In this document: positions 1-21,000 of the stretch, piece by piece
How positions within the stretch are numbered: position 1 is the first letter of the stretch
Layout: the number at the start of each line of letters is the position of its first letter
NCBI GenBank assembly: GCA_963662715.1
Contig: OY759724.1
Span: 1,260,001-1,292,000, forward strand
From: Candidatus Omnitrophota bacterium
GTDB taxonomy: Bacteria; Omnitrophota; Gorgyraeia; Zapsychrales; JANLHA01
Reading direction: 5' to 3'
DNA length: 32,000 nucleotides
The notes under the pieces: generated by a model
What the model saw: the letters and a program-made list of their open reading frames with translations, nothing else
Database searches by the model: none
Told to the model about the DNA's origin: nothing
Translations under genes and position numbers: made by a program

Positions 1-3000
1 CCATGATCGCCCTTTCTGTGCGATAAGGACTAAGGTTTGACATCTTCGGAGAAAGGTTCTGCACCTGCTCTGGAGTCAAGGTGACCAATTCGTCATATTT
101 TGCCGGCGGCTGCACATCGAAAATAACTTCTCCCTGTGCCTGCGTCCTGATTTCAGAAGCAATCTGCGGATTCTCCTTCATTATTTCGGAAATCTTGGAA
201 ACCAAGACAGCTTCTTGCGGCTGGGAAGCGGCGTTCATGGACCCCGTCAAAGCCCTGAGATCGGAATAATTGATATCTTTCGCATCTTTAGCAACAACAG
301 AGGAAACTCTCTCCGGCAGTTCAATCGGAGAAGAAGAAGGCTTTTCTGTTAAGTCATAGGATTTCGCCATGAATTCACTGTTCGGCATTTCAACAAACTT
401 CTTTAAAGCTTTTTCATAATCATGATCCAGGTCCCCCCGGTTTTCCACAACCATAACACCGAGGACCTTCTCCTCTTCAAGCACTCTGAAGACAACCCTT
501 TGATTCCCCAGCCTGAGTTTATTAAGACCTTTTAAGGCCTGGTTGTATTCAAATTTAGACGGTTCCGGGCTCTCGAGGAAAGTTGTAAAGGAATCTGATA
601 ATCTGCTTTGGACTTGATTGAGCTTGGCCTTCCTGACGTCCTTCAACACGCGGACAGTATAGCCTTTAACATTTACCGGCTGAGCGGCTGCGGCCACTTC
701 GGCCGATGAAGAACCTTCAGTTCCTTCCCGTTTAGCGGCAAATTCTTTCTTTGACAGGCCCCAGCGCTGCAGATTATTCATAACCCGATGACGTGTCGAA
801 CCTGTCATGCTCTGTGTGAGGTCAATCAAATCTTCATACAGCTTAACTTCACCCTGGTCTACAGAATCTTGAATTAAATCTTTGATATCATCAAAAGCCG
901 CGCTTTCCTTGGCGTCCACAACAGCGCTGTCCGGAATCGGCATAATCTCCTGCTCCGGAGCGAGACTCTGTTCGGCAACCCGTAAAACCGGTTTAATTTC
1001 AGCATCAAATATTTCCTGTGCTTCTGACTTGGTGATCTTGGCAACGTCCGCCATGCGGGGCAGGGTAATATTAACATTATCGTCCTGCAATTTCACATAG
1101 GCGGCAGCCAAAGCCTGTCCTTTGGGAGAAATCCTTAAGGCATCGCCATACTGAACGACATCCTGAGGTGCTGATATGTAATTCTCTTGAATATAGGTCT
1201 TGGCCCTGGCCATTTCAGATCTGGCTTCAATGGATTTCTTCGGGCTGTTCTGGGTTTCACGGCTGTATGACAAGAGTAGATCAATAAACTTCTTAGGCTC
1301 AGTTCTTAAATCTGTCCGATCCAGTTCCTCCAGGATATCCGCTGCCTTAACGCTGACTCTTCCTCTGCCTTTGGTTAACTGAGCTTTAAACGGTTCGGCC
1401 TTCTTGACCGGACTGGACGTCGTGGCATTAACCACCGCGGATTGTGTCCCGTAATTCTCCGTGAGAATCTGCTGGAATTTAACCCGGTCGCTTGCGCGTA
1501 AAGAAATGATCTCATTACCGAATTTTTCAATCGTCTCAGCATCATCACTGTAAACCTTGACCCTGTTGCCGCGGGAAGTGACGGTAGGCGGAATACTCTG
1601 TTCCACTTTGGCTAATTTATCAACCGTAGGAATGAGTTCTCCGGCTGTCTGACCATCCAAATCAGAATCAACAACATTTGCCGTTAACCGGACCTTAGCA
1701 TCAACATCTATATTCTGATTAATTTCCTGCTCAACGGCATCAACGAAAGCCACAAAATCTTCTTCTTTTAAGTCGCGGTTAATGCCCTTGGGGATAACCA
1801 AATAGAAATTGTCCGGCGGGCCGCGAACCAAGCGCACGCCTCTGAGGTTTTGAGACTTTAATACTTTATTATAGGCTTCTGCCGAGGTCAGGATGACATT
1901 ATTCGCCAGTTCATGATCAGAGAATTCATTAATTACCTTAAATCCGAATTCCCCGTTATCATTTCCGCGCAAAGCATCGACAGTAAACTTGCCGGTGGCT
2001 ATAGATTCTTTAACTTGGGTGTCTAATTCGTCGTAAGGCACATATTTTGAGTCGTTTTTCACCAGGAACATCGCGTCTTGTGCCAATTGAGCTGTAACGA
2101 AATTCCCTAATTCCTCTCGTTTAAACGCCGGATAAGTCGGTTCCAGCTGATCCGTATAAAGCTCAATTCTTGGAGAAAGTTCCGCAGACAGGGCCGCCAC
2201 ATAATTTTCCCTTATAATCTGAGGAAGCGGCTCCATGGTTCCTTCTTCGTGATCAAAGTCTTTTAAACCTTCCTTAAAAGCTGTTCCCATGGCCCCGGCC
2301 TGGTCGCTCTCCTTGGCCAAATTAAGAATAAATTCTCCGCGCCGGATTGCCGCCCCATAGGAAGCGTCCACGCCGGAAGGCAACTGAGGAGCACGCTCAA
2401 CCCCAAAAGAAAGTTTCGGGCTGAACACTTCAAAAGGAGTCCCTGCCTGTTCGATTCTCGCATTAACGCCCGCCGCTGCTAATTTGGCATTAATAACCGT
2501 CAATCTGTCTTCCAGGCCTTTTTCCAAAGACTTGCCTTCGCGATCATAAACCACAAACGTCCCGTCAATATCTTCAAAGAAGGAATTCAACACCGTGTCC
2601 CCTAACTCTTCCTGAACCAGGTCAATCACGGCTTCCCGATGCTCAAGAGCGCTCACGCCAGCAAAATCCACCTTGCTGAATCCAAAGGCCCCGGGAATAA
2701 GCTGTTCAACTTTTTGCTGCGCTTCCTGACGGATAACATCCACGTCTTCCCTGGAAAGGTCTGACGGAAGGATAATACCAACTTCGTCCCCGGAAATTCG
2801 GATGGCCTGGCCGCCATGCTGCCGCATAACCTCATCAACAATCCGAACGCCGGCAGGAATAAGAATATCCACAACTTCTGAAGTATAGCTTTTATCCATA
2901 GCCGCTATCTTCGACATGTCGCCGAAACCAACCCATGCGCGCGGATCCTGCGCTAACTGCTCTTTCACGGCCTGAATGCCTTCCTGACCGGCTTTAACTT

Positions 3001-6000
3001 TAAAATAAGCATTCATGGCGTCAGGAGTAATAACCTTCCAGGTTGACTGCCCTTGCGTTCTGGATAAGAGCTGCATCGCTGCCGCAGAAATCGGAGAAGA
3101 GGAGGCAGAACCGCGGGATTGTCTAATATCAGACAACAGAGCCGATCCTTTTTGTTTGCTGACCGTAATCACACCTTTTGTCGTATTGGCATCCGGGACA
3201 TAGGTAAAAACATTGATATCTTTTGGTGTCATGGCTGCCGAATCATCCAACATAGCAATAGGCATATTTACAATTTCATCCATATCAGGCTCAAACACTA
3301 TACCTATAGGCTGAGCAACGATCTTGTCTGCCAATTCAGGAATAAGAAAATCAGCTGATAAACGGTCTTCTCTGCTCGGGCCAGGCACCTGACCGGACAA
3401 AACCCGGCGCCCAGGATGCGTATGATAAACTCCGAGCAATTTCTTTTCGCCCACGGCATTGGATTCAATCAATTGAGCGACATTTTGTGAATCCGGAACC
3501 AGATGTTGTCCTGTCCTCTCGGAATATTCTGTTAACGGAACCACATCCGTTATATTATACGTGCCTTCCGGTCCCTGTTGACCGAAAAGCAAGCCGGCTG
3601 ACTCTAAATAGGTTTCCTTTTCTTCCTGAGCAGGGATAATACTTGTTAGTCTGGCCAAATGATTAACAATTTTTGAAGGAACTGTGTCTGCGAGTTCAAC
3701 GGATATATTGGGAGTATTCTGCAAATTGTCAACGCTTACATTAGGATTCATCTCCTGCAATTTATCAAGAGAAGCTGTTCGTGCGATTGTGACCGGAGAA
3801 GAAACTGCCGTGGTTTCTCTAATAATAGCCCTGGCGTAGGTGGTCGGGCTTTCGGCAAATCGAACTGTATCGGTTTGTGCCGGATCCCAGGCCGTGCCTT
3901 TTGTTTCTGCTTTATCAACAACATTGGCGACAAAAGCTTTATCAATAGAGCCTTCCTGCGCCAAATTGGTCATCAAGGTATTGACGGCAAGGATAAATCT
4001 TGCGTCACGGGTTCCTGAACCGGTTTCTCCGCGGGTCATCAAACCGCCGTTTTCAATATAGTTGGCAAAAACTTCTTCGCCGTATTCTGCCTCTTCCGGA
4101 GAATAACGATACGAAGAGGCCATAATGTTATCGATGACGCTTACCGCCTGCTGGGTCGCATAATTATCAGACCGTCGGGCCGTGTTCATAATGCCTTGCA
4201 GTTCGCCGCTGGTATATTGCCCGGCTTTTCTCGGCTGATGGTTCTGCACTCTCTTTTCATTGTTGATAATTTCACGATGGAATCTTTCATGGTTGTAAAC
4301 AACGGCCGCATATTCCGTATAAGCTTCTTCGAGACTGACTCCCAGGGAATTCTGAATAGCGCCAACCGTCTGCAGGCTGAAATTATTCAAGTTAATATTT
4401 AACTTTCCGTTATCATAAACAGCTTTTCCGTCTCCTGCCGCAGCATTGGATCTTACGGAAACGATGCTCTTGTCTTTAAAGAAATCTGATTTTGCAACGG
4501 CCGTTTTGATAACATTGAACTGTTCCAGTGTCGGCTTGGCAATCTGGATTGGAGACGAAGAGGCTTCCACCTTTTGGCTTCCGGCGATATAATTTTGGGC
4601 TCTCAGGCTCTCTAACGTTGTTCCGTCCGCTTCCAGGCCACGGCCGTTAACCAACACAACCTCTTCAATACCCAAATCATTGATGATACGCTTCAATTCC
4701 CCGCTTTGCCGGGTGAAATTCGTTAATTGTCCGCTGCTGTTGACTGTGTTTGATCCGCTGTCAACCGCTAACACCAGCTTGCCGTTCTGCTTGCCTACCC
4801 GCATATATCCGCTGTAATCAACGCCGCCGGTCTTCAACCCGCCTAACTCCGGATAGTTTCTTTCATTCATAAAGGTTGCGTGCGGAGCTTTTGTCCCGTC
4901 TGTATAGACCTGTCTGCCCTTTAAGACATAGGTGATTCCTTCTGATAAAACTCCGCGCTCATCATTCGGGGCGGACTGAACTTCATCAATCGCCTGTGTC
5001 AGCCATCCGTACATGGCCGGATTCTTCTGCTCATAACTGCTCAAGCGGACATCTTTTTTCGTTTCCGGAGTAATGTCGACAGCGGACATCATTGACTTAA
5101 CGCTGTTATTAAAATCGCGCCGGATATCTGCCACCTCGGCCTTACCGTACTCGGCCTCCATCTGCCTCAGCTGATCCGCGCCCATGTCAACGATTTCCTG
5201 CACCAAAGCTTTTTCCTGTCCCCTCGGAGTATATTCGTTGCGGCTGATCATTTTTCCTAACCGATTGATCAGTGACGGGGCTCCGGAAACTCCCTCTAAC
5301 AACATCTGCCGGTTGAGGTCATTGGCCTTATTGCTGATTTCGGTCTTTTCCGCGCCGGAAGGCAGGCTATTGACTTTCCGGTTGGCCGAAGCCATCTCTT
5401 TCACAATCGGACGGGCATCATATTGCCGGTTTCCGGTTTCTGCGGCTTTGTTGTACCCCTGGACGGCTTTGTTAAATTGCTTCTTGGCTTCCTCAATGTC
5501 AAGCGCAATATTAGATATAGAGGAAGACGCTGTATCCTGAGAAAGGGCCATGCGGTCCTGGATACCGGAGAAATCTATGGACTGCTTCTTGACGTTGATC
5601 GCATTTACAAAATCCAGAGTTGAAACATTGCCCCATCTATTGACTTCATAAGCCAAGTCTTTCTGCGTATCCGTTAACTGGCTCGCATCCGCTGTTACAG
5701 CAGCTTTAACCTGATCCACGGTCGCATTGTATTGTTTGTAGGCGGCCATGGCCTGCTGCGTCGCGCTTTCCGGCAAATCAAGTTCCTGGACAAAAACTTC
5801 ATAACTGGCTTCCAGCACTTCTTTAAAGGCGCCGGCATCTTTCGTATAAGAAACATTAAAATCTGCCGGGAAGAACGCACTGTCGCCCATAACTTTATCC
5901 AAAGCCGAAATCTTCTGTTTGATTTGATCATCGCTCAGCTTGCCGGCTTTCTTCATTTTAACAGCCGCATTTGTCAAAACAGCTTTCTTGACACCTGCCC

Positions 6001-9000
6001 GGTAACCCTGATCTTCAAGAACCCGTCTGTTTAACTCATCCATTCTGGCTGTAACGGCAGCGGTCTTGACAAAAGAAGCGGCATCCTTGACGGAATACTG
6101 AACTCTTTCTTCAGAGTGGTATTTTCCGGCAACCTTCTTTTGTTTGCTGGTATACTGCTTTCCTGTAGATATATCGCTGTACGCCAGGAGATGACCGGCC
6201 ACGGACATGGAGGTCCCCGGCGCCATAGGGATAGCAGACACCTGAACATTATCTGTCGTCATGCCCCAGAGAATATTGCGGTAATATTCTGTGGACATCT
6301 GGGAAACTTCCATGGCATTGGCTGTTTCTCTGTCATAATCTTCCTGGCGGCTGTGATGGAAATGCACGCCGACTCCGGCCTTGACATTTTCCTCGCCAAG
6401 CATCACCGGTAAGCTTTCCGCCAAGCGCTGAACGCTGAACTGCTGAACCAACCATTCCTTCGCATCCGCCTTGCTCTTCACCTGATCCAGCATCGGGGAC
6501 ACGACTTCCGGACTGGCCAAATCTTTTTCTACCCGGGTCTCTCTCGGTCCGGCTTCACCGACACGATAGCCTAACTGGATTGTGGGGTCTTCGGATATCG
6601 GCTGTGCTTCACTCTCTGTCTTCCCTGTCACCACATATAATAACTTGCCTAATAAATCATCTGTTTTCTCCAGCTGAACGGACTCTAAGCCGGAGATTTC
6701 CATGTCCACGCCTATCTTGCGGTTCTGCAGGCTGTCGACAAAAAGGTCTATGAAGCCCGCATTGTCCAACTCATTAAAATCTTTTTCGGCTTCACTGCGG
6801 ATAGCGGCCCGCAACGCATCATTATTATTAAACAGCTCTACAACCTGCTGTTTAGGCAAACTTGCTATTGTGCTTGGACGTTGTTTTATACTGAAATCCC
6901 TAATTGGAGAACTTGTCAAACCGGATCCGAAACCGGAAGAAATCTTTGGCGCAGAAGACAACTGGAAGGTAGGCAGCAATCCCGAGCTGACAGGAGCCAC
7001 AGGAATGACCGGAGAAGAAACGACCGGCTGTTTAATCGTCGGCATACCCACAGGAGGCGCCAGACCGGTTGAAGATGTCACTTCCCTTGTTGAAAGATCC
7101 GTCATATCTGTTGTTTCAACAGAGCCGTATTTCTGCAATTGGGTATCCACAGAAGCCGGGCTGATATCCCCCATAACCTGCTGAGAAATACTGCCGGCGG
7201 AATCTGAGGATTGAGATATCTGTGACTGATAATAGTTGGTCGCATATGGCATAATGGCTGTCAAAGCTGCCGGAGCGTCTACAACAGGAGCCGGAGAAGT
7301 TCCGCTTGGAGCCCCATCTCCCCGTCCCGAGGCTTCTGATTTTCTAAGATCTGATATCTCGGCAGGATTCTCTTCTGTTTTCCAATTTCTTCTTTGTCTC
7401 TTTGACGTTGAAGAAGCTGTATCTTTTCCAGAATTTTTGGAAGAAGAACTTTCATCTCCCCGCCCCGAAGCTTCCGCTTTTCTAAGATCTGATATCTCGG
7501 CAGGGTTCTCTTCTGTTTTCCAATTTCTTCTTTGTCTCTTTGGTTTTGGAGGCGTCATCGAAGCTTCTTCAATAGAAGAGGACACCTTCACTTCTTTACT
7601 CTGCTCTGGAGGCGTTACGGAAGAATCATCCTGTTTGGGAGGAACAAAACCTTTCTTTTTGCTAGGATCCGTAGAAATCCTCTTGCTGCCCGTAAAGACA
7701 GATGAAATATCAGAAGACGCGTCTAAAATCGGCGAGGATTGTCTTAGCGGGCCTTCGGTTGAAAGATCCAGCATCATCTGCCAATAGTCCTTAACCGCTC
7801 CTGAGAAATCCTCTTCCTTGGTCGCACTCTTATTAGCATAATACGCCGCCAAGACCGTCTTTCTAAAATCTTTTAAGGCTTGAGGGTCTTTTTCCACCTC
7901 AGCAATATCAAACCACCTCTGTCCCATCAAATCACGCGTATTCACATCAAACGCCAATACTCCCGAAAGCGTCACCCGCGTCCCCATTTTCTGCAGTGCT
8001 TCCGCCGTTCCTGCTTTTGTTAATATGCTCTCAAATCTCCTCTGGCTCGTTAACACCGATATCATGTCCTGAGGACTTAACAACGTTAAAGACGTCTCCT
8101 GCGGCCCAGCATATTCCTCCAATGCTCTGGCATAAACCCCTGTCAGTGTATCGCTCTCTTTTTCCGCTTTCGTAAACGAATTGTGCACATGCGCAAATCC
8201 AAGAGAATGATCCGCCTGCTGGTTCTTTAACGCTGTCTTTAAATTGAACGCCGCTGTCGGATACACAAACCGAGGACTCGAGAAGGTCTCGATCCCCAGC
8301 TCCCCATCCAAATACAGGTTGTCTGTCATCCCGTTAATCTGACCGTTTTCTATTGAGAACTGCCCTGCCACCTTCTGCGCCTTGATCGTTTCGATGACTT
8401 TCTGCTCTAACTCTTCATTGCTGATGCTGTCTCTTTCCCGGCCCGGGAACATTTCATGCAGCTTCTCGGCAGAGAAGAACCGCGCCATGGAAATATCCTG
8501 CGCCAAGACAATATCTTTCCCTGATAAGAAGAACCGGTTGCCGTCATCCTGCTCCACTTCCGAAATGATCGGATGTGACGCGATTTCCAAGCCAAACTGA
8601 TACGTGCCGCCACCGTTGACTTTCCGCATGGCCGGCAATGCCCGGGTCCACCCGTAAATATTCTTGTCTAAATCTCTCACATCATTCACACCCAAGCTCT
8701 TGGGAACCAGAATATGGGAGAATGTTCCGCCCGGGTCCATGGCAATCAGGTAAACTCCGAATTCTATAGGCTGGCTAAACTTCCGAACATCTTCCTGGAA
8801 CACTGTCTCAATCTCGCTCAAAGGATATCTGAATTTCGTTCTCTGCGGCGAAACCGCTGCCCCGTTCTCCCTTGGTTTTCTCCCGAATAAACTGATGGGA
8901 GAAGACTGTGCTGTTTCTTTATCTAATAATGATGAGCTTCGCGCAATCTCAACTTTCTGCTCTTTTTGAATAGAGGAAGAAACTTTCGGCTTAGAATCAT

Positions 9001-12000
9001 TAAATGTTCTCACCATATCACCAACGGCTGATTCTGCCTTCCGGGCACCATCTTCTTCCTGAAGCGCAACAACAATATTATCTATTTCAGAGACACCAAA
9101 AGCACCCGCAGCGCTAACCTCCGGCTGCTGCAACTTTTGAACGATTGTTTCTGTTAATTGGTCCGGACTCTTTGCCCCGGACAAAGCAATCTCCGTAACG
9201 ATTTCGCCCAGAACCGGGTTGTCTACAGCTGCCGCATGAATCTTTAATGTATCTCCTTCTTGTGAAACCAGAGGATTTTGCAGCCCGCTAATCACTTCAA
9301 TAGTATTTACTCCCGTCACCATTAAGTCAGACTGTTTATTTAAACTGCTCTGAAGTTTAACTTTTTGCTCTGGAGTTCCCTGCACAGCCACCAAAGACTC
9401 TCCCACCTGCAACGGCATACCCACATCGAGATTATACTGGGTAAAGAATTGCCTAAGCTCTTCATTGCTTTGCATCTTGCCGACCAAAGCTATCAAATCC
9501 TGATCCCCTGCCCCGGAATGGAACCTTATGGCTTCCTCCGGAATATGAAGGAAAGGTGAAACATGGCCAAACAATTCTACGGCTGCTCCGAATTCGGTTT
9601 TCGCAAGAGGCATCTCGGCTAACTTGTGCAAATCTTCCTTGGTAACGATATGACCCGGTTTCTGTAATGTCTGCAATTGATTAAGGAAAGCCACTGTAGA
9701 CTCATCCGTTTCGTCAAACTGACGGCTCTTTTGAATACGCTGTTCTATATGCTTTAATTCCGTCTTCACCTGCTCCAAGGAAAGATCTGTCCGTTGCGAA
9801 TCTTCAATCCCGGCAATCAGGTCATACACTGGGTGATCGTATTTCATGTTTCCCTTAGCCTGATATTTATCCAAAAGATTGCCTACAAGGGTTTTCAATT
9901 CTTCATCCCCAGATTTTTCAACAATGTCTTTCAATTGTGATAAACGACCAACCACAAACCCAGGGGAAGATGTTTCTTTCTTTTCTGTTAAAGCATGATT
10001 TCCGTCATGGAACAAAGCCATCAAGTGACTGACAAAATCCCTTCGTGTCTTTTCCTTGCTAATATATATCTGCGAACCCGGACCTCCTGTTTCACTGTCT
10101 TGGTCATCAAATTCTTTATAATTCGCAAGCGTACCCGGAGCATACATACCCTGTTTATTGTTCGCGACATTCAATTCATCCTGAATTAAATACTGAAGAT
10201 CCACTCCCGCCTCTTGGAATGCCACTAAGAGACGGTCAATTTTCTGGTTAAAGGCGGCTTGGGTTTCCGCATCAAATTGGCCGCCCAGCCGTAAATTAGG
10301 TTTGGACGCCTCGACAGCACTCTTCATTTCTGCAAAAGAAAGATCCTTAACCATGGCCATATTATACTCCCGGCCTGAGGCTAATTGGCCAAAGAGCGGG
10401 CCAACCAAGGATTGATCCCGGCTGTTCTGATAATGCGGGCTTTGAGAGAGGACGTAGAACGGAAGCATTGTGGCTAACAATTCGTTCCATGACCCATCCC
10501 CGGCATGCTCAAAACCATAATGCTCTTGGCCACGCACATCTACACTATATAACCCTTCCTTAAATATACTGCCATCGACAACCTCTCCGCCTTCGTTAAA
10601 TAAAGCTTCTGTTGCCCCGGCCCCTAAAACCCGGTCGAGACGTTTTGTCTGCACCCATTGTTCTCTTAATATCTTTTGCCCTTGCGGTGTCTTATCCAGA
10701 TTATTAAGCGTATCCAGGAAGTGATGGCCTAAAATTTCGTGAATAGGCTCCCAGACCTTCTTATAGGAATCACTCTGTCCTTTTGAACTAAAACCGCTCA
10801 AGGCTGTACGGATATCTGTAGTGCCTCTGGCATGTTCTGCTGCCGCCTCACCTTTCTTGTCCATTCTCCGGCCAGGAACCAAAGAGAAGCTCACCCGCTC
10901 TAATTCTGCTTCTAATTTTTGATCTCCAAAAAGAGCCTCTCCTTGCCCAACCCCCAAAATGTCTTTGGCCAACGGCAAAACATCCCGCTGCCAAATAATA
11001 CTTCTCGTTTCCATTTCTTTGGATATCCGGTTCAACTGGGAAACGACCTTTTCCGCATTATAATCAACCGTGCTTGCCCCCTGTAAAATTCGATATAATT
11101 TAGCCGCTTGAGCATTAGTTAAAGAATCGGACAGGCCTAAATCAAAGCTGCTCTTAAGCTGGTCAAACTTATCCTGAACAACCCCTCTTTCATCAATATA
11201 TCCATTCTCCACTAATTCAGAGAAAAGACTGTCTGCTTTTCTCTGTTTTCTTGCCGCGCGCTCTTTAGAGGAAAGGCCTTTCCCCGTAACCGTAACGACT
11301 GAAGCCAAGTCCTGTGCTGTAACAGGCCGGCCGGTCTCTGAACCAGCTACAGCCAAAATCTGTCTGTTTATTTCTGCTCTTAAAGCATTTTGTTTTTCTG
11401 CTACCACTACTTTCCGTTTCTCCAGCTCGGTTCTTTCTTCTTGAGAAATGTTTCCTTTCTTCTGCAAACCGGATTCCAATTCTTTCAGGTCAGCTTCTGC
11501 TTTCCTCTGCTCAGCCACTAAGGCATTGAGCATCGGCAACACGTCCGCCAGCAAAGCTTCTCCAGCTCTTTCGGCAAGATTAGCCGAAGGAGAGTCTTCC
11601 GAAGCGTTTAATTCATTATATTTGTGCTCGTACAGAAGAGCGATAACCGTATTCTCAACACTAAGGCTCTCCTGCAATTGTTTTTTACCGCGTCCCACAG
11701 GAGCAATAAAGTTATCAATCGACCGGTCATGAACTTCTATTTGGTCAAAATCAGCAATATTATCCGGAACTGTCAAACCCTGCCCGTTATTCAAAGCCTT
11801 GATATATCCGCTATCCAAAGACAAATTCTCTTGCGGAGCCACGGCAATTCTTAATTTGGCCTGCTGCAGTCTTGTTTTATAAGCTTTAGCCTGTGTCGAC
11901 TCGTTGCCGTTGGCATCTCGAGGAGCGACACCCAACAGAGTCAAGGTATCATCTTCACTTAAATTCAATTCCTCGGCAACTTTATTCACCATATAAGGGG

Positions 12001-15000
12001 TCACCATTCTCATCTGCCTGTTTCCGCTTCCCGCCATAACAGAATCCGCCAATTTACCCAATCGGGAATAAAATTTGTATTCCACAGAATTCTTATCATA
12101 ACTTTCCAAAGTCGGTCCCAAAGCATCAATGAAAGCTAAAATTTGCCGGCCTTCTCCATTAGGAGACATGAAACGTAACGGCAATTGCCCGACAGCATTC
12201 TTCATAAAGGTGCTTCTTTCAGCCCGATTCATAAAAATATTCCGCAAATTATTAAATTCCCCTGTCGAGGCATACATTTCATTAGTTATAAGTTCGGTCA
12301 TCATACGCATTTCACGGCCGTTTCTTAAAGCATGTCCCTCACTGCCTCCTATACCTAAATCACTAAGACTCATAAGTTCACTAGCGTATCGCTTCTGATC
12401 ATCCTGTCTCATCTCGACAGCTGCTTTTTCCCTGGCAGCTTTAACTTTTTTCACAACCTTTGCCACATATTTACTTGGTTTCACGCTCTTATCTGCTGAA
12501 ATAACCCGGTCAATGACTCTATCAATCAATTCCGGAGAATAAAAATCATCAAGAGTCAATGTACTCTCAACCAATGCTTCATTCCCGGATATTTGTGCGG
12601 CATTTGCGCTCTGCTCGCGGATCATGCTGTCCGCCTTCTGCCAAACAGGATTATCCCTATAGGTCCCCACGGCATACAAACCAGCCATAATTTTTAAAGC
12701 TCTGAACCGCTGATTGCCTTTATCTTTACCGGTTAAGCCTAAAACTTCCTGAGCCTTTTTGATCGTTCTGACAGAAGGACTTGAATAAAGGCTTGTTGCT
12801 TCACTCAATGTGGCTTTATCTTCTTCCTCCCCTCCGAGAGAACTATTGATAATGCTGAATTGTTTCGCCCGTTCCTGAACAATCTCCATCATAAAGTCAG
12901 AGACCTCTTTGTCGTTTACAACGCCGGCCAAAACTTCTTGCTTGCGCAGGGGATCGTCCTCTGAAGCATAAAGCACGGACATAAAATCTTCCATAGACAG
13001 GTCACCAGGTCCAATTAAACCGGCAGCGGCTAATTCCCCGATATTATTGTCTAAATTCAGGAAATTGGAAAGTCCGGATGTAAAGGAATGAGTGAAGCTA
13101 ATATACGAATTTTGAGCCAAACTCACGGCAACATCCATCCCCTTGACAAAGTTTGCCCGCAGATCATCCTGTGTTAACGGTGCCGCTAAATTGCCTTGAC
13201 TGTCTCTTGTTCTGCGGGCAAGACCAAATGTTCCTGTTGCAGGATCAAGTTGAGGGGCTGTTCCTTGTGGCATAACTTTAAATATTCGGAGCAATGCCTG
13301 TTCCTGCGGACCGCTGAGCGTTGCCAAACTCGCAAAAGTTTCAAGGGCATCAGGATTAATCTGGCGGTCGAGATCGCTCACTCCTTCCGAGACATCGGAA
13401 AGGACCCCGGGAATGGCGGCAAGAGTCTGGAAGTACGTTTCTGCTTCTTGCCCGGAAATATTTACAGCGTCAAACAACTCGCCCACCGTCTGAGGAACAG
13501 CCTGACCGTTCCAAACCTTTCCCTGAGGACGTAATGGAACAAAAGTATCGCTTGCGGTCTTCCCAATAGTAATTGTTGTCTGATTTTCAAACCCGGGATA
13601 TTGTTGAGTGAAGTCTCCCATTTCGTTACGGGATAAAATGGATTTTGTAATATCTGCCACTCTGTCTGCGGCTAAGAAATAAGGTAAGGACTCACCTGCT
13701 GTCGGTCCGCCGTAAATCAGACCTTCCAACATAGACTGTGTTTTGGGAAGCAATAAAGCAAAAATTTCGCTGTTTCTCCCCATTTTCGTTTCCATAAATC
13801 TGGCCGTGGAATCCAAGGCATCCCGTATAACAAAGTCCGTGGCACGGGCTTCTTTAAATTTGTTCATCAAAATAGAATCCGAGGTCAAGGCCTCTGTTCT
13901 TAACAATTCCAAAGCCCTAATAACGTTTTCCCGCCCGCCCCCTGGCGCTGACCGCTCAGCCATAATTGCATCGTCAATCGCCCGGTATTTCGGAGTCATT
14001 GCTAATTCCACGGCTAACCGCGTATTTTCTATTCTTGACGCCATTCTTTGATTCTTATTTAATGTCTTTACGACAAAATCATTATATGCCTTTGGCCCTT
14101 GTTCTCCTGTAGAGCCTTTTTGTTCCGTGGCCAAAAGAACTCGAGTCGGCATATTGGCAAAATCAATAGATTCTTTGCCGCTGGCATCAAAGCTCATAAT
14201 CCCGCGAGGCCGGCCTATAGCCTGCCTGACCATTTCAAAGAAAGACCGCGGAGTAGAAACAACGATCGCGATACTGTCTGCTTTAAAACCGAAGTTTGCA
14301 CCAACGGCTCTCGGCCCGAATGTAATAATAATCGGTGCCTCATTGTCAAAATGCATCTTCTTTAAACTATCGACCTTCCGATTGCCTTTAATAGCCTGCG
14401 AAAGAGTTTCCCCGCTGGCTCTGTCCCAAACAATTTCCCGGCCATTGGTATCCAGAACAATGATTGTTGACTTTTTGTGAGTTGGAAGCTGTCCGACACT
14501 TGCCTCAATTTGTTTTACAACTTTTTCATTCACTAAATATGTATCCGGGAAGAAGAGGTGCAGGGCTCTCTTGGCCAACGACTTCCCTCCGGAAATCGCA
14601 TCAATATTATTAACGATGGCTTTTCCAGGGTTTGATTCACGGGCTGCTATAAATTTATCGGTTTCGTTTTCCCCTGGTCTGAACGGGACCTGCGAACTCC
14701 CCATGGCATTTGAGTCTTTTATACTCATGGTGACCAGTTCATTAGCGCCATAAAGTTTTAGCATTGTGGGAGATAAAGGCGAGGCGCTGATCATTAAGAC
14801 ATTTGATCCTTCAGTCTTAACAAGATCCCTCATAATTGTGTCAAAACTAACCCGGGTGATTGTCTGTGTCACTTCAACGCCTTTCGGATTTCCTTTTTTA
14901 CGACCAAAAATCGGGGATTGGATCAATTCATCCATAACCGGCCTGATGAGATCCTGCACTTTCACATCATAAGCTTCGCCTCCCATCAAACTCACCGGAC

Positions 15001-18000
15001 GGGATCTTTGTTCTCCCAGCGGAGCACTATATGTGCGATACAATAATGGGAGAATTTCCCCCCAGGATTCTATCCCGGCATTGAAAGCAGCGATTAAAGC
15101 GTCCGCTTCCGTATACCCTTCCTTCAACCCGTACTTTTCGAGAACTTTCTTATCCAAAGACAATCTTTTATTTCTATTTCTTGATAGCTTATCCACCCCT
15201 TCATGAATCGTAAAGCCTTCTCGAACCGTGCGCATTGTTTCTCTTTGACCTTTGGAAACCAAAATCTCTGTCAACCATGCCTGGACCAATTCCAAAGAAG
15301 CAATAGCTCTTCCGCCTTTTTCTCCCGGCTTGCTGATCCACTGTTTTCCCTGACTGTCTGTTCCGCTTAAAAAGTGCATCATATCTTCAAAATTCTTTAT
15401 GGTCTGTCTCTGCTTCGGATCCGGATGATTTTTAGCAAGTTTTCTAATAGCTCTGTCTAATGCCTTGAACGCTTCCGTAGAAAAACCCTGCAATACTTCC
15501 GGAACATATCTGACTTCCCCGGTCCGTTTGCTTAGATTAAGGAAAGGCATATATTCCAATTTCGCGGCCTCATCAAGAATCACATGACGGCCAGTCCCTT
15601 CTCCTTTACCATTTACCCTTCTTTTCATGGCATTGTATATATTCGAGTAGAGTTTGCCTTGAGCCTGATCGGCCTTCTGGCCATAGACTAATTTTATAGT
15701 ATACGGGGAGGTCACAACCAAATCGGCATTTTCCAGATTCGCCAATACGCCAGCCGGGTCACTCTGCACATCTTCCATTTTCACTTCGACAATTTTCTTT
15801 AAACCTTGCTTGGCTAATTTTTCACCATGTTGCTTCTTCAGAAAATCTATCTGCTCACGAACCAAGGCATCCGGAACAATAACCAATGTTCCTCTTCCTG
15901 TAAAGCTATTATAAAGGGCCTGTGCAATCATTAAAAACGTGGATTTTCCAGCACCTGTTTGAGCCGTAATATAATTAACTTGCGCAGGAGCTTTCCCTTT
16001 AGTATTACGAGCATGCGCCGCATCAATAACATTAGCCCCGTTTAGAGCCAAAAACATTTCCGGCTGCCCTGCTTGTAGCAATTCATATCCTGTAATTTCC
16101 GAAGCCGTTACAAGAGCCTTGGCCAAGGTAGGATCCAGAAGGGGTTTTCTCGTCCGTATATCCCAAATCGTTGTCAACTGAAGGATTGTCCTAATATCTT
16201 TAATTTCCTGACCGCCAATAAATACTCTTACCGGTTTTCTGCCGTTCATGGCATTGGCGACTTTCTGAAGATCACCATAAGAACTAAGAGTACTCATCTC
16301 AATGACTTGCGGTTTTTTGTCCCGGCCGGTAAACAGAGAGGCGAACCCTTTTGCTTTTATTTTTAGTTCTGATACTATTCTCCTCATTCTGGACCGCTGT
16401 CCCAGCGGCATGACTGTGACGGTCGGGGTTTCTGTGGCGGATTGAGGCGTTGAAGAGCCTTTTTTGGCTGTTGTTTGAGGCGTGGTTGAGGGGGCGTTTT
16501 TCTCCGCAGAAGTAGGAGGCCCGGTCTTCTTGGTAGCGTCTTTTGCTTCTGTTTCGGTCTTCACGTCCCTCTCTTTTGGCGGAACTCTCAATGGCGCTGG
16601 CAACAACGCAATAGACGTCCACAAAGATAACTCGGAAGCAAGTTCTCCCAAATGGGCCAATCCTTTCTCACTGTCCAAGCCTTCCCCGCCGGTTAAAATA
16701 TTCAAAACATATTTCTCTGCAGGAGTCGCTGTGTCCGCTGCCGTTTGTTTGGCCAAATTCATCAAACCCGGAGTAAAAACATGTTGTGTCAAAAGATCAT
16801 TGGCCCCCAGGAAGACCGACAATTCATCAGCTTTGGCTATTTGTTTAACCAAAAACGATCCGCTCAAGCCTTTTTCCCCTACCTCTACACCTAATAAACG
16901 ATGGAATTGATTCCCTTCGCTAAGCAAGGTTTCCATGCTGACCGGCTTTTTCTTTAACGCGGCTTTTCCTGTCCGGCCAAACAAACTCAAATAGCCTCCG
17001 ATACCCCGATTTGTCGCCTCAAGCCTGGCAAGAGAAGAATACGCTGTGGGCATCATAAAATGAATAAGAGGTCCGGTTGTCGTACCGCCTTCCAATCCGC
17101 CACCGACAGCCTTGAAATATTTTTCAATCATTCCGAAATATTTCAATTTATTGGACGGAGCATCGCTGCCATAGTTTGCGCCGAATATATTTAAAACACC
17201 CTTTGCCGTATCTTTTGTGGCTTCCCAAAGAACACCGGCGGAGGCAAAACCGATGCTTCCCTGAAGAGACATCATCGGGACAGTCAATGACTTTTTCAAA
17301 GCCTGACTAACTGTCGCTACCGGAGCTGCTTCCATAGCCCCTATCTTGGCAATTCCTCCGGAGAAAAACTTTTTTACTTGCAGGATATTTGCCCCGGCAA
17401 TAAACAGAAAGGCCGCAGCCAGCCGGGTTTCAGTGGAAAGATCTTTTCCGTCACTGATAAAATTCTTATAAATGTAATTTGGGCCAACATATCCAGAAAC
17501 GCCTGCCGCAGTGGTTCTCAAGACTCCCTTAACCAAGGTTCCCGGCTGGATAGCTGCTATGCCGCTTTTTTGCGCGTCAATAGAAGGAAGAACTTTTTCC
17601 GCAGCTTTCTCAGCGGCTAATTTTGTCCCATATCTTTCAGCTGCGACAGCGAAATTTTCAGGCATCGTGACGCCTGCTTGACCTGACTTAAGCGCATTAA
17701 GAGTTGATCTTTCAGCTAATGCCATACCAACGGAATTAACGACAAAAAATGCCATTCCTAATCCAGCTCCCCAAAGCCCTGACTTGTTAAATGATCTCCC
17801 AAAATCCCCCAAGCTAAAGGATTCCTCATTAATTATAGCTTCCGAATAATCCGATAGCCCTCCGGACAAGCCCCAGGTAGCATACATAGAACCGATACCA
17901 GCCAAACCTTTTAAATTGGCTATGTTGCCGGCACGAGTCAGAAAGCTGCCTTTCATTGTTGACAAGAAGGAACCTGTTCCCAAATTCGGATTATATCCGC

Positions 18001-21000
18001 CCATCTTCCCGGTAAACATCTTGGAAGCAACATAAACAGTGGCAAATAAAGCCGGCCCTTTGGCAGCGCCTCTCAAAGCCGCGGCTCCCCAATTAGCGTC
18101 CCGCTGATCGACAAAAGCAGAGATACCTTCGTTCGCCATAGCGCCCAAGGTCGTTATACCGGTTACAGTCGGTAAACCCACAGCAATTCTCGCCGCCTCA
18201 CCCTTTAAACCTTCAGCTGTCAAAGCCTTGCCAAAAGCTCCCAGCTTAGGATATTTCTCTGCCACACGACCTCCCCAAGCAACTAAACGCGGACTGACTT
18301 TTGCCAAAGTTAAGCCTCGATTCGTAAGGAAAGTAGCGACTTTGGCCGAGCCTTTAAGAAAACCTACTGTCAAAATAGCGCTTTTCAGGTTTTGCTCTAA
18401 ATTCATAAATTCGCCGGTCATGCCCAAATGAATCAAATTCTCAACAAGCAAAGTCGTGGCGACTTTCATTCCGTATTTTTTAATACTTTCTTTAACAACT
18501 TGCTTGGCGCCTTCCTTAATAGTAGCGAGAGTTATCTGCTTTCCAACTTCTAGTCCGGCCTTGACCCCGGCCTGTTTGGCGGCATTGACAATGTTCCCAA
18601 CCCCTGTGAGAGCCAAAATAATGGTAATAGGAGCGGTAATCCCTTCAACCCATCCCTCAACCTGCGCTACGGTATTTAATTTTTTCCCTTCAAAGATAAA
18701 ACCTCTAAAAGTCTGATCTCCGCTGAGCAATCCTTCCGGAAGAATAACATTGCCCTTCCGATCTTTTCTCTCGTCATTGGACAAGGATCCCAGCAAACGA
18801 ACAACATCCTGCCCATCCACAATCCTTCCCATAAGCGCATTTTCATCTTTATCAAAATGCACCGCCAAATAATTATTTGTGTTGGAATCGGTATCATAAA
18901 CATCAAACATGCCGCGATAATCGTTTTGGCTCAAAAGCATAGACCCTATCTGATCATCGGACAATTTATCCGTAGCATAAAAGAAATCCCTGTCATTCAA
19001 CTTTTTATCTTTGGAGTTCTCATCTTTACCGGAGAATCTAATATCATCCACGTCCAGCTTGGTCTTCAGGGGCAAAAGATCGGTAAGGACATTACCCTCA
19101 GCATCGGTAAGATAAGTGTCAAAATCATCTCCGCCAAAACCGCTCCAGCTCATAAAATCCTTTAACGTGATTACCCCTACGGTCGAAACCACCTCTCCAT
19201 TAAACTGGGCTGCTACGTCTGCCGGGAGGTTTTCATCCTCATGAAAGTCTTCACTGTTGTCTTCGACATGCTCTCGCGATCCGGCCTGCCGTCCATACAA
19301 ATTGATTTCACTCGCATAAAATTGCTTCTGAATGCCATTTTCATCAACAACAATAAACTTTTCTCCCTTTCTCATCTTCTTTATCAGCTGAAATGGCATA
19401 TATACGGGGTTGCTCATCATGCTCTGATCTTGCATACGATCCATTACCAGGTCAATTGAACGCATTTCTTCCTCTTCAGCCCATTTCTTAGAACTTACGG
19501 TAACAGGAACCTGCTTGCCGCCTATATTAAGAAATACCTGCTTCAAGTCACCGGATTTTGGACCAAAAACATGACTTTGATCGATTTGATGCATGGCAAT
19601 AATATTACCATCCGCATCCAGTTTCAAAACGATCTGGTCATTATCTCCCCTGCCGTCGGATTTGCTGCTGAAAAAGCCCGCTTTTCTCTTAGTCTGAAAA
19701 TCATTTAAAGCCTGATCAAGCTCTTCCCCTGTCACACCTCTAAGATCCTGCAGCATCTCTTCGTTATCCAATCTGCGATCAAAGGCATAAGCTATGCGTC
19801 CGCTTTTCGTAAGCATTCTATATATCTTCTCGCTGGAGTTATTCACAAAAGCATAGGACCCATCACGGATAACGGCTCCATTTGTTGTGCCGCCTCTTAA
19901 AATCTGCACCACTCTTGACATCTGAGGATATAAAGGTAAAACAACGACTCCAGACCCGGTCTCAAGATTAATAAGCAATTCACCGCCGCCATAACTGTCC
20001 GTACCAATCAGGCTATTCATGGCATTCAGAGAAGCTTCTAATGTCGCGTCTATTTCTGTTCCGGCGTCTTCTGCTGTTGATGCCAGCATAATCCCGTCCA
20101 CAGACATCCCGTTATACTCAACGCCAAAAGTATAGTCATCATTCGCATCACCCAAATCCAGATAAGCTAAAGATCCGCCCCCTAATATGTCTTTAACCCT
20201 GAACTTCTGGGCAAAAGCTTTGTTGGGATCGTAGCCGCTGCTTTCATCATTGGCCGGATCATCTTTCTTCAGCACCGATAAAACACCACCCACAACGTTC
20301 GGAAGAAGAACCCCGCCATTCTCTGCCATCCCCGCGTTATTTTCATCATTATAAGCATTCTCATTATAAATTGAAGTTAACAAGGAATACGTCGTTGGCG
20401 TAAGAACTCCACCCGAGCCCAAGACAAATGTCAGTCGTCCGTTCCCGCTGGTCGTCCAGTCATCAATGGTGGCAGCTATCTCCTGATCAGGAGTCAGATA
20501 AACCGTTCCGTCTTCCCCGGTTCTTTTATTTTTGATCGAATACATGCCTCCGCTGTCTATTTGAAATTCCGGCCGGCCGGCTGCCTTGGATTTTTCAGGG
20601 TCTTCCGGAACAAAAGCAAAAGATTCCCAAACCCCTCCCTTTTCTGCGAACCGGGCCGTCCCTGAAAAATTCACGTTCATGATTCCCAAAACTTCCTGAG
20701 CTCCGTTGAAAAGCTCCTGAGCCGAATAGACGATAGCGCCATCGGATTCTCTCTCTTTACCATCAATACCTCTTGATTCAACAACAACATTGAAGAACGC
20801 CATGACTTCTCTTAATGCCGTCTCTTCCACATCCGCCATCTGTCCATCCGTGGCTTCGGCAATAATAGCGGCAACATCTTTGTCAGAAATAAAATATTTC
20901 GGTTTTACCGGGGCCATAGCAAACTCTTGATACCCCGGCGTTTCTAAATCCTTTTTATACTGAGCATAATCTTTCTGATATTGACTCGCCACCTTTTCAA

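Follow-up and report, generated by a model that had tools for sequence, protein, structure and literature searches.

The giant proteins of the Omnitrophota rank with the largest that have been predicted, and what they do is little understood; the ideas that have been put forward for them (prey attachment, cell-wall degradation, processing into smaller products) rest on a few recognisable domains. Here we describe a RelE/ParE-type domain that lies inside one of these giants, encoded by a 32,000-nucleotide stretch of a Candidatus Omnitrophota assembly (GCA_963662715.1, contig OY759724.1, positions 1,260,001 to 1,292,000), which is called the window below and whose source is a probable predatory Omnitrophota bacterium. 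The RelE/ParE fold has previously been met in stand-alone toxin-antitoxin (TA) systems, at the C-terminal tips of polymorphic toxins and in small fusions, and the interior of a polypeptide of more than 10,000 residues is a new context for it.

The free-standing RelE/ParE toxins of family PF05016, such as WP_002163075.1 of Bacillus thuringiensis (p113275), WP_068657042.1 of Paenibacillus crassostreae (pPC03) and E. coli RelE, are proteins of 86-95 aa, each with its own upstream antitoxin gene, and the ParE-type gyrase poisons among such toxins are without the RNase catalytic residues (Gerdes, PMC11980606). In the polymorphic toxins, which carry RHS or filamentous repeats, HINT-type releasing peptidases and a downstream immunity gene such as Imm54 (PMC3482391), the toxin occupies the extreme C-terminus, and one of the toxin domains known from these systems is Tox-RelE, defined by equivalents of R61 and R81 of RelE (Zhang et al. 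2012, PMC3482391). The MARTX (multifunctional autoprocessing repeats-in-toxin) proteins hold an internal array of exchangeable effectors that is freed by an in-cis protease (PMC6315884, PMC4453568). Multidomain and fused RelE/ParE proteins are also documented, including 195 cases in which antitoxin and toxin are fused in a single gene (PMC11980606). For the Omnitrophota giants it has been proposed that they associate with membranes and that C39 or S8 domains cut them into smaller products (West-Roberts et al. 2023, 10.1101/2023.11.21.568195).

A divergent RelE/ParE-superfamily domain in a giant protein

The minus strand of the window is a single stop-free frame from 31711 to 2 (10,570 codons in a six-frame analysis), in which the first ATG, at 31708, opens a giant open reading frame (ORF) of at least 10,569 aa that continues beyond base 1. 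A first-pass annotation of the window had placed a RelE/ParE-like fold at bases 420-661, in frame inside this protein, and had quoted the peptide LKG...LRLGNQRVVFRVLEEEKVLGVMVVENRG as its hallmark. The peptide is present, on the minus strand and in frame within the stop-free ORF, and the interval encodes aa 10351-10431, with the sequence YTVRVLKDVRKAKLNQVQSRLSDSFTTFLESPEPSKFEYNQALKGLNKLRLGNQRVVFRVLEEEKVLGVMVVENRGDLDHD; the core of the domain proved slightly larger than had been drawn (416-664), with an extra helix reaching to about base 371. Profile, tblastn, hhalign and Foldseek evidence agree on the fold, and similarity to the superfamily lies above background both in profiles and in structure.

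Library scores below threshold were insufficient by themselves, and several independent tests were therefore run. In Pfam, ParE_toxin (PF05016, clan Plasmid_toxin) matches residues 14-88 of a 100-aa segment over practically the full profile (positions 3-85 of 89, E 0.006), at a score below its gathering score. A phmmer search against all Protein Data Bank (PDB) sequences placed E. coli RelE at the top (four sequence variants, E 0.2-0.4), with RelE residues 8-91 aligned, and the archaeal RelE 1wmi next. A local hidden Markov model (HMM) built from 106 E. coli-type RelE proteins was run on 418 overlapping 120-aa tiles (~25,000 aa) drawn from the window protein, two related giant ORFs and the distant relative P0002 described below; the window module ranked first (17.4 bits, E 8e-5) and the P0002 module second (9.6 bits), the best tile other than these reaching 5.3 bits, which leaves the window module a margin of ~12 bits. 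The P0002 module also matches Pfam Toxin_YhaV (E 9.2e-5), at 22.9 bits against a gathering score of 35.

Comparison with plasmid-borne toxins gave the same answer. When the 89-aa module was searched by tblastn against 7.3 Gb of plasmid DNA, 51 records were returned (best E 1e-3 to 4e-3), and each of the 25 listed matches lies under a gene whose annotation reads RelE/ParE family toxin or plasmid stabilization system, at 27-32% identity over 81-88% of the module. Two of the free-standing toxins found in this way (86-87 aa) exceed the PF05016 gathering score, at 39.2 and 29.6 bits. An hhalign comparison of a four-member alignment of the giant-protein modules with the free-standing toxins gave P 1.9e-5 and a probability of 78% over 62 columns. 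A profile of three to four family members searched against PDB sequences returned noise only (endoglucanase, myoglobin, eIF2alpha) and brought no gain over the single sequence. No second RelE-like copy was found in the giant protein (best other tile 8.4 bits), and BLASTP showed no internal repeats in it. The domain is thus a divergent but real member of the RelE/ParE superfamily, with a sound assignment of homology and fold, and is too divergent for automatic annotation. The features of the window are collected in Table 1.

Table 1. Features of the window, given as window bases and, where applicable, residues of the giant protein
Feature	Bases	Strand	Residues and remarks
RelE/ParE-superfamily (BECR-fold) domain core	416..664	minus	aa 10350-10432; β1 (GYTVRVL) to the Tyr aligned with RelE Y87
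C-terminal extension EKALKKFVEMPNSEFMAKSYDLTEKPS	335..415	minus	predicted helical; AlphaFold2 helices at model residues 86-98 and 101-106
Ser/Ala-rich low-complexity linker GSSSAEVAAAAQPVNVK	665..715	minus	pLDDT <50 at residues 63-75 of the 181-aa model
Four-helix, helix-turn-helix-like domain	716..898	minus	aa 10272-10332; AlphaFold2 helices H2-16, H20-31, H36-47, H52-63
N-terminal cassette part	899..1405	minus	aa 10103-10271; well-conserved helical segment ITLPRMADVAKITKSEAQEIFDAEI
SSPV motif	1406..1417	minus	aa 10099-10102; N-terminal cassette boundary; L002/L003 homology block begins here
SSPI motif	323..334	minus	aa 10460-10463; C-terminal cassette boundary
Degenerate GGDEF-like cassette	1418-3100	minus	aa 9538-10099; SGDEV in place of GGDEF
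JAB/MPN cassette	3101-3802	minus	aa 9304-9538
JAB/MPN metallopeptidase-like domain	3356..3697	minus	in cassette aa 9304-9538; Prok-JAB 28.8 bits, gathering score 25
Peptidase_C39-like domain	30821..31063	minus	aa 217-297; PF03412 28.1 bits, gathering score 22
Giant ORF	2..31708	minus	at least 10,569 aa; 3' end outside the window
Terminator-like hairpin	31926-31901	minus	11 pairs and T-run, ~190 bp upstream of the giant-gene ATG

Predicted structure and catalytic residues

An AlphaFold2 model of the domain, built from a three-sequence alignment, has a mean predicted local distance difference test (pLDDT) score of 64 and a predicted TM-score (pTM) of 0.62, and orders its elements as β 8-13, α 18-37, a low-confidence stretch at 40-53, β 55-58, 61-68 and 73-80, and α 86-98. 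At moderate confidence the model thus has the arrangement of the RelE/ParE fold (β1-α1-α2, a three-stranded antiparallel sheet and a C-terminal helix), with the low-confidence stretch in the place of α2. The first-pass annotation had proposed such a prediction as a check, and its outcome bore out the suggestion, with the top 36 Foldseek matches in the PDB all being RelE, RelE1/2, YoeB, HigB/HigB2, ParE or PfiT (or their complexes), or Cami1. The best match is 4fxh_B (E 2.6e-4, probability 1.00), and target-normalised TM-scores reach 0.59. A single-sequence model of the 181-aa segment that also includes the upstream helical domain returned the same families at weaker E values.

In the alignments, the window domain has Lys at the position of RelE K54, Arg at R61, Arg at R81 (within ENRGD) and Tyr at Y87. 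Across the four lineages the equivalent of R61 does not vary and that of R81 is R/R/R/K, and the R61, R81 and Y87 equivalents together with a basic residue at K54 are kept across lineages that are 26-44% identical. The multiple alignment also brings out a signature in common with the free-standing toxins, [KR]LR[LIV]G..R[VIL].F ... NRGD..Y, into which the window domain has inserted four residues ahead of the final Tyr. The free-standing relatives end at NRGD[IV]Y, and the C-terminal extension of the window domain is not found in them. Because the K54, R61, R81 and Y87 equivalents are retained, the alignments make an RNase of RelE type, or at the least a module that binds RNA or the ribosome, more likely than a ParE-type gyrase poison.

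Relatives, interior position and selection

An exhaustive HMMER search of 1.84 billion representative proteins with the 181-aa query found only two relatives, P0001 (1,885 aa, E 7.9e-21) and P0002 (1,485 aa, E 2.8e-4), both of which match the helical as well as the toxin-like part. The module family is thus either rare or under-sampled. In word-indexed searches neither the module by itself nor the four-sequence alignment returned a homologue, two metagenome scans with conserved cassette peptides found nothing, and an exact-sequence look-up of P0001 gave no record. A scan of GTDB genomes yielded two loci with 53-54% identity over the cassette region: L002, on contig JAKQKX010000073.1 of a Candidatus Omnitrophota metagenome-assembled genome (MAG), to whose protein P0001 is nearly identical across the overlapping region, and L003, on contig CAZAXH010000003.1 of a MAG labelled Planctomycetales.

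The first-pass annotation had also taken the domain to be non-terminal, and its interior position is confirmed. Within the window it is followed by at least 138 aa; after the module the ORF goes on for more than 3,300 aa in L002, where it fills the entire 21.4-kb locus, and for ~2,230 aa in L003. The L003 giant ORF stops at 18061, and a second long ORF in another frame (17866-21366) overlaps it by ~200 bases and runs to the end of the locus, which could reflect a frameshift, an error of assembly or a genuine boundary between genes. In the domain, L002 and L003 are set apart by 21 synonymous and 10 non-synonymous changes; the resulting dN/dS of 0.10 points to purifying selection and, as a measure of constraint, does not separate a toxin from an exapted module.

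The distant relative P0002 (L001 218-4675, JGI 3300017613 contig Ga0186781_1136646) is a Lys/Asn-rich, otherwise unrelated protein in which the helical and RelE-like domains are sited near the C-terminus, so that the two-domain unit is not confined to proteins of more than 10,000 aa. P0002 also has two repeated, faint GNAT-like modules with DSA[ML]T motifs between them, and its gene adjoins an Rrf2/sulfur-assimilation gene cluster.

The cassette, its SSP[IV] boundaries and the mosaic around it

SSPV at aa 10099 and SSPI at aa 10460 delimit a cassette of 361 aa, whose C-terminal part is the RelE-like domain. The first-pass annotation had described the toxin fold itself as flanked by SSP[I/V] motifs, which is so on one side only, where SSPI follows the domain after 28 aa; SSPV lies ~250 aa before it, and what the two motifs flank is the whole cassette. 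In its N-terminal part the cassette gives only weak Pfam hints (Toprim_C_rpt, E 0.02-0.03; TFIIB, E 0.11).

SSP[IV] occurs 10 times in the window protein (at aa 1410, 7603, 7992, 8232, 8267, 9052, 9304, 9538, 10099 and 10460), where 0.24 are expected from shuffles, and nine of the ten lie between aa 7603 and 10460. The L002 and L003 proteins have 19 and 15 copies against ~0.3 expected, and the enrichment is ~40-60 fold. The Ser, Pro and Ile/Val codons of the motif vary freely, so it is the peptide, not the DNA, that is constrained, and a DNA-level recombination site was rejected as the origin of the motif on the same grounds. Judged from the sequences, SSP[IV] acts as though it marked cassette boundaries at the level of the peptide, for instance as a site of proteolysis or modification.

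When the window protein was compared with L002 and L003 by BLASTP, the homology fell into discrete blocks, several of which begin or end at or within ~10 aa of SSP motifs. Window residues 9052-9297 match L002 1874-2119, the SSP motifs lying at 9052 and 9304 (window) and 1874 and 2128 (L002), and window residues 10097-10570 match L002 3326-3789, with SSP at 10099 and 3328, respectively. Between these blocks the window protein has ~800 aa, holding the JAB and GGDEF-like cassettes, and L002 has ~1,200 unrelated aa; by eye, from P0001, L002 aa 2128-3328 appear to contain methyltransferase-like modules and several that are GGDEF-like. The cassettes upstream of the RelE-like cassette thus form an exchange mosaic that is reminiscent of MARTX effector repertoires.

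The cassette that follows SSPI (window 2-322, aa 10464-10570) is the most conserved stretch, LVTLTPEQVQNLSPKM.NLSPYRTERAI..., and extends in L002 (aa 3685-3850) as VVLKGDGTAYDGNNRIIWAQKMNAPLKAYVP, which to the eye recalls a ParB/sulfiredoxin-type motif; the cassette has no Pfam match at E up to 0.5. C39 peptidases cut after Gly-Gly, and JAB peptidases typically after a C-terminal Gly-Gly. Downstream of the module in L002, at ~aa 3880-4040, repeated segments such as KRGGMMQVSSSVVARPSPMAMAQAQPGGMMQVSS contain Gly-Gly and could be alternative processing sites.

The upstream helical domain

A four-helix domain with a sequence pattern resembling helix-turn-helix (HTH) lies directly before the Ser/Ala-rich linker, and it precedes the toxin-like domain in the same order in every relative found (L002, L003 and P0002). 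The order mirrors that of antitoxin and toxin genes in the closest free-standing relatives, which have a small antitoxin gene, in one case annotated as XRE-family, directly upstream of the toxin gene. The first-pass annotation had suggested that the preceding segment might hold an antitoxin-like fold, which no sequence test supports, the co-conservation of the helical domain notwithstanding: the helical domain is not significantly similar to any Pfam family, ribbon-helix-helix (RHH), Phd/YefM and HTH families included, a profile search of it against the PDB gave only a spurious match to pentatricopeptide repeats, and its comparison by hhalign with the antitoxins that belong to the closest free-standing toxins gave P 0.41. 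In the 181-aa two-domain model (pTM 0.39) there is no confident packing of the helical domain on the toxin-like domain. An antitoxin identity of the helical domain is unsupported, though not disproved.

Comparison with described systems

The window domain shares with the free-standing toxins the order of the fold, the signature and the residues aligned with K54, R61, R81 and Y87, but differs from them in having polypeptide on both sides, an extra C-terminal helix, the insertion before the Tyr and a PF05016 score below gathering. It is not a small stand-alone protein with an adjacent antitoxin gene and so does not belong to the classic type II TA systems. With Tox-RelE it has in common that a RelE-fold domain with R61 and R81 equivalents forms one part of a large protein of several domains, peptidases among them, which is probably exported. 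The first-pass annotation had likened it to the C-terminal toxin cassettes of polymorphic toxins, and this may hold for the mode of action but does not extend to membership: the toxin of those systems is terminal, whereas the window domain is interior, with thousands of residues after it in the relatives, Pfam finds no RHS, FHA or HINT elements across the whole giant ORF, and no immunity gene was found in the window, which does not reach the 3' end of the gene.

The likeness to MARTX toxins lies in a large single polypeptide with discrete internal domains and a repertoire that is swapped by cassette between relatives; the cassettes of the giant protein would, on this analogy, act as effectors. 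The two differ in that the giant protein has SSP[IV] as its boundary motif, an Omnitrophota host and a presumed prokaryotic prey, against the eukaryotic targets of MARTX toxins, and its release and delivery are hypothetical. Pfam, searched at E up to 0.01 for the first 10,000 aa, at E up to 10 for the last 700 aa and at E up to 0.5 for the C-terminal cassettes, gave no match to the GD-rich RTX repeats or to the C80 domain, a cysteine protease activated by inositol hexakisphosphate. Cami1 (CARF-RelE, PDB 8phb), which is among the Foldseek matches of the window domain, ToxM and the antitoxin-toxin fusions are cases of a RelE fold working inside a larger polypeptide, and the helical-then-toxin order in the giant protein recalls the last of these. 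Those proteins are of a few hundred residues, with a recognisable sensor or antitoxin domain, whereas the giant host is ~30-100 times larger and its helical partner matches no known antitoxin or sensor.

The host protein resembles the Archaeovorin type in part, with an N-terminal C39 domain near a membrane or signal segment, scattered candidate transmembrane (TM) helices, a weak DEAD/SecA-like ATPase signal and modules of GGDEF and methyltransferase type; its closest relatives lie in an Omnitrophota MAG and in the MAG labelled Planctomycetales. The terms RelE, ParE and antitoxin are absent from the text of West-Roberts et al. 2023 (10.1101/2023.11.21.568195), and the matches to them shown for a 2026 Omnitrophota preprint are to flanking genes or unrelated words, with no domain inside a giant among those matches. 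As far as these two sources show, the RelE/ParE-type module would be the first nuclease-toxin-like one reported in the Omnitrophota giants. The case joins a RelE-fold module and a MARTX-like array of internal cassettes in a different host protein, an Omnitrophota giant. On the features compared, this protein belongs neither to the type II TA systems nor to the polymorphic toxins or MARTX toxins, and yet it plausibly works alike.

Possible function and release

The reading that we favour, tentatively, is that the domain is a latent RNase-type effector within a multi-cassette, Archaeovorin-type giant protein, from which it is possibly released by proteolysis. The domain is a fixed part, under purifying selection, of a cassette made up of a helical HTH-like region, the flexible Ser/Ala linker, the RelE-like domain and the extra helix. 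Enzymes of RelE type have to reach into the ribosomal A site, and for this reason the domain would be latent for as long as it stays tethered in so long a chain (more than 10,000 aa); the co-conserved helical domain upstream may also mask it. It would be activated only once proteolysis, plausibly by the giant protein's own C39 or JAB peptidase domains, had cut it out at the boundaries of the cassette, and the freed domain would act on translation in the prey cell, or in the producer. A more far-reaching proposal, which we regard as distinctly doubtful, is that Omnitrophota giants of this type are polyprotein "effector trains", with C-terminal regions that string together exchangeable cassettes, in which SSP[IV] sites are cut by in-cis C39 or JAB peptidases, the RelE-like domain is a prey-delivered warhead that blocks translation, and the producer is protected by tethering and by the helical domain as a novel sort of antitoxin in cis.

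A number of observations weigh against a latent effector of RelE type. The homology is well supported, but function and release are inferred, the RNase-type activity, the latency, the proteolytic cut and the target in translation alike. Every curated family threshold is missed (ParE_toxin, with 17.6 bits against a gathering score of 23, Toxin_YhaV for the P0002 module, and NCBIfam, which gave no match), the L002 and L003 copies match no Pfam family individually, and only a weak hhalign result (P 0.0087) was obtained with a narrow alignment of E. coli RelE, because all 120 homologues returned for that alignment are at least 68% identical to RelE. RelE K52 has no equivalent and the R83 position is Leu. 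The confidence of the AlphaFold2 models is moderate (pLDDT 63-64), TM-scores are 0.3-0.6, and the poorly modelled, low-confidence segment coincides with the second helix of RelE. Relatives share the RelE-like cassette (53-54% identity) while the cassettes adjacent to it differ, and the hypervariability expected of classic polymorphic-toxin tips is not seen in it. No separate antitoxin or immunity gene was seen in the window, the 3' end of the gene lying outside both the window and the fetched loci. Finally, the membrane topology is ambiguous and does not fix the side of the membrane that bears the RelE-like domain.

That an unrelated α/β segment should resemble RelE/ParE by chance is very unlikely and already disfavoured: the sub-threshold individual scores and the noise-level search of the family profile against PDB sequences would be in keeping with it, but independent methods and lineages agree on the superfamily in the same register (tblastn, hhalign with P 1.9e-5, the top 36 of Foldseek), and the ParE_toxin match of the window domain, the YhaV match of P0002 and the ~12-bit margin over background tiles all speak against chance. 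A better case can be made for an exapted, non-toxic RelE-fold module that is never released and serves as a structural, RNA-binding, ribosome-docking or protein-interaction unit, although we consider it rather unlikely. Such a module could well be conserved with its neighbours instead of polymorphic, have no detectable antitoxin or immunity partner, diverge strongly from all curated families, lose the K52 and R83 equivalents, acquire a C-terminal helix that free-standing toxins do not have and sit among cassettes with degenerate active-site motifs (SGDEV for GGDEF), all of which is observed. It accounts less readily for the retention of the R61, R81 and Y87 equivalents and of a basic residue at K54 over lineages that are 26-44% identical, or for the keeping of the NRGD..Y signature of bona fide toxins.

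It is also conceivable, if unlikely, that an antitoxin-toxin module was captured and fused and now works in the producer, as a growth-arrest, quality-control or defence switch that regulates itself in cis. A bicistronic operon would have been taken in frame with the gene order of relBE or parDE, giving the helical domain, linker and toxin, and the order of the domains is indeed the gene order of the closest free-standing relatives. The helical domain is always found beside the toxin-like domain, even in P0002 with its 1,485 aa, fused antitoxin-toxin genes have been documented (195 cases, PMC11980606), and the identifiable neighbours (JAB and GGDEF-like here, SAM-methyltransferase-like in the relatives) use cytoplasmic substrates. 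Against such a capture, the helical domain has no detectable similarity to antitoxins or to RHH, Phd/YefM or HTH domains, nor to the cognate antitoxins of the nearest free-standing toxins (hhalign, P 0.41), and the 181-aa model (pTM 0.39) does not pack the two domains confidently on one another.

With no separate antitoxin, a toxin-like domain inside a giant polypeptide makes one ask how self-intoxication is avoided. At ~90 aa, with its predicted catalytic Arg and Tyr, the domain is a small piece that can be tested by expression, and together with the SSP[IV] mosaic it makes the idea of a polyprotein processed into effectors concrete enough for experiment.

Other features of the giant gene

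The overall layout of the protein is an N-terminal membrane segment with the C39-like domain, a long undefined middle and C-terminal "beads-on-a-string" cassettes (JAB, GGDEF-like). Pfam scans of the whole ORF brought out the C39 domain, a glycine zipper, the JAB domain, a weak DEAD match and the degenerate GGDEF-like module. In the C39-like domain the candidate Cys (in FNCGVYAL) is at ~aa 172, upstream of the matched stretch, and the candidate His is in GSEHF. The JAB/MPN domain exceeds its gathering score when its cassette is scanned by itself, and its motif, as read from the sequence, is H-T-H...S-R-E-D with an atypical 13-residue spacer. From their sequences, both domains are candidate processing peptidases. 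The DEAD-helicase signal is weak (Pfam E 0.0039) and falls at aa ~5250-5390 (window ~15554-15970), after a hydrophobic segment at aa 4357-4375; SecA_DEAD has no Pfam match in the giant ORF. A hydropathy scan gave two clear and three weaker candidate TM segments.

No second plausible gene was found in the window, the remaining ORFs being short, inside the giant gene and nearly all on the opposite strand, and PADLOC detected nothing relevant there. The terminator-like hairpin upstream of the giant gene probably ends the preceding gene. The plus-strand GC skew is below zero in each 2-kb bin of the window (-0.09 to -0.30), and the GC content climbs from 41% at the 5' end of the giant gene to 47-48% at its 3' end.

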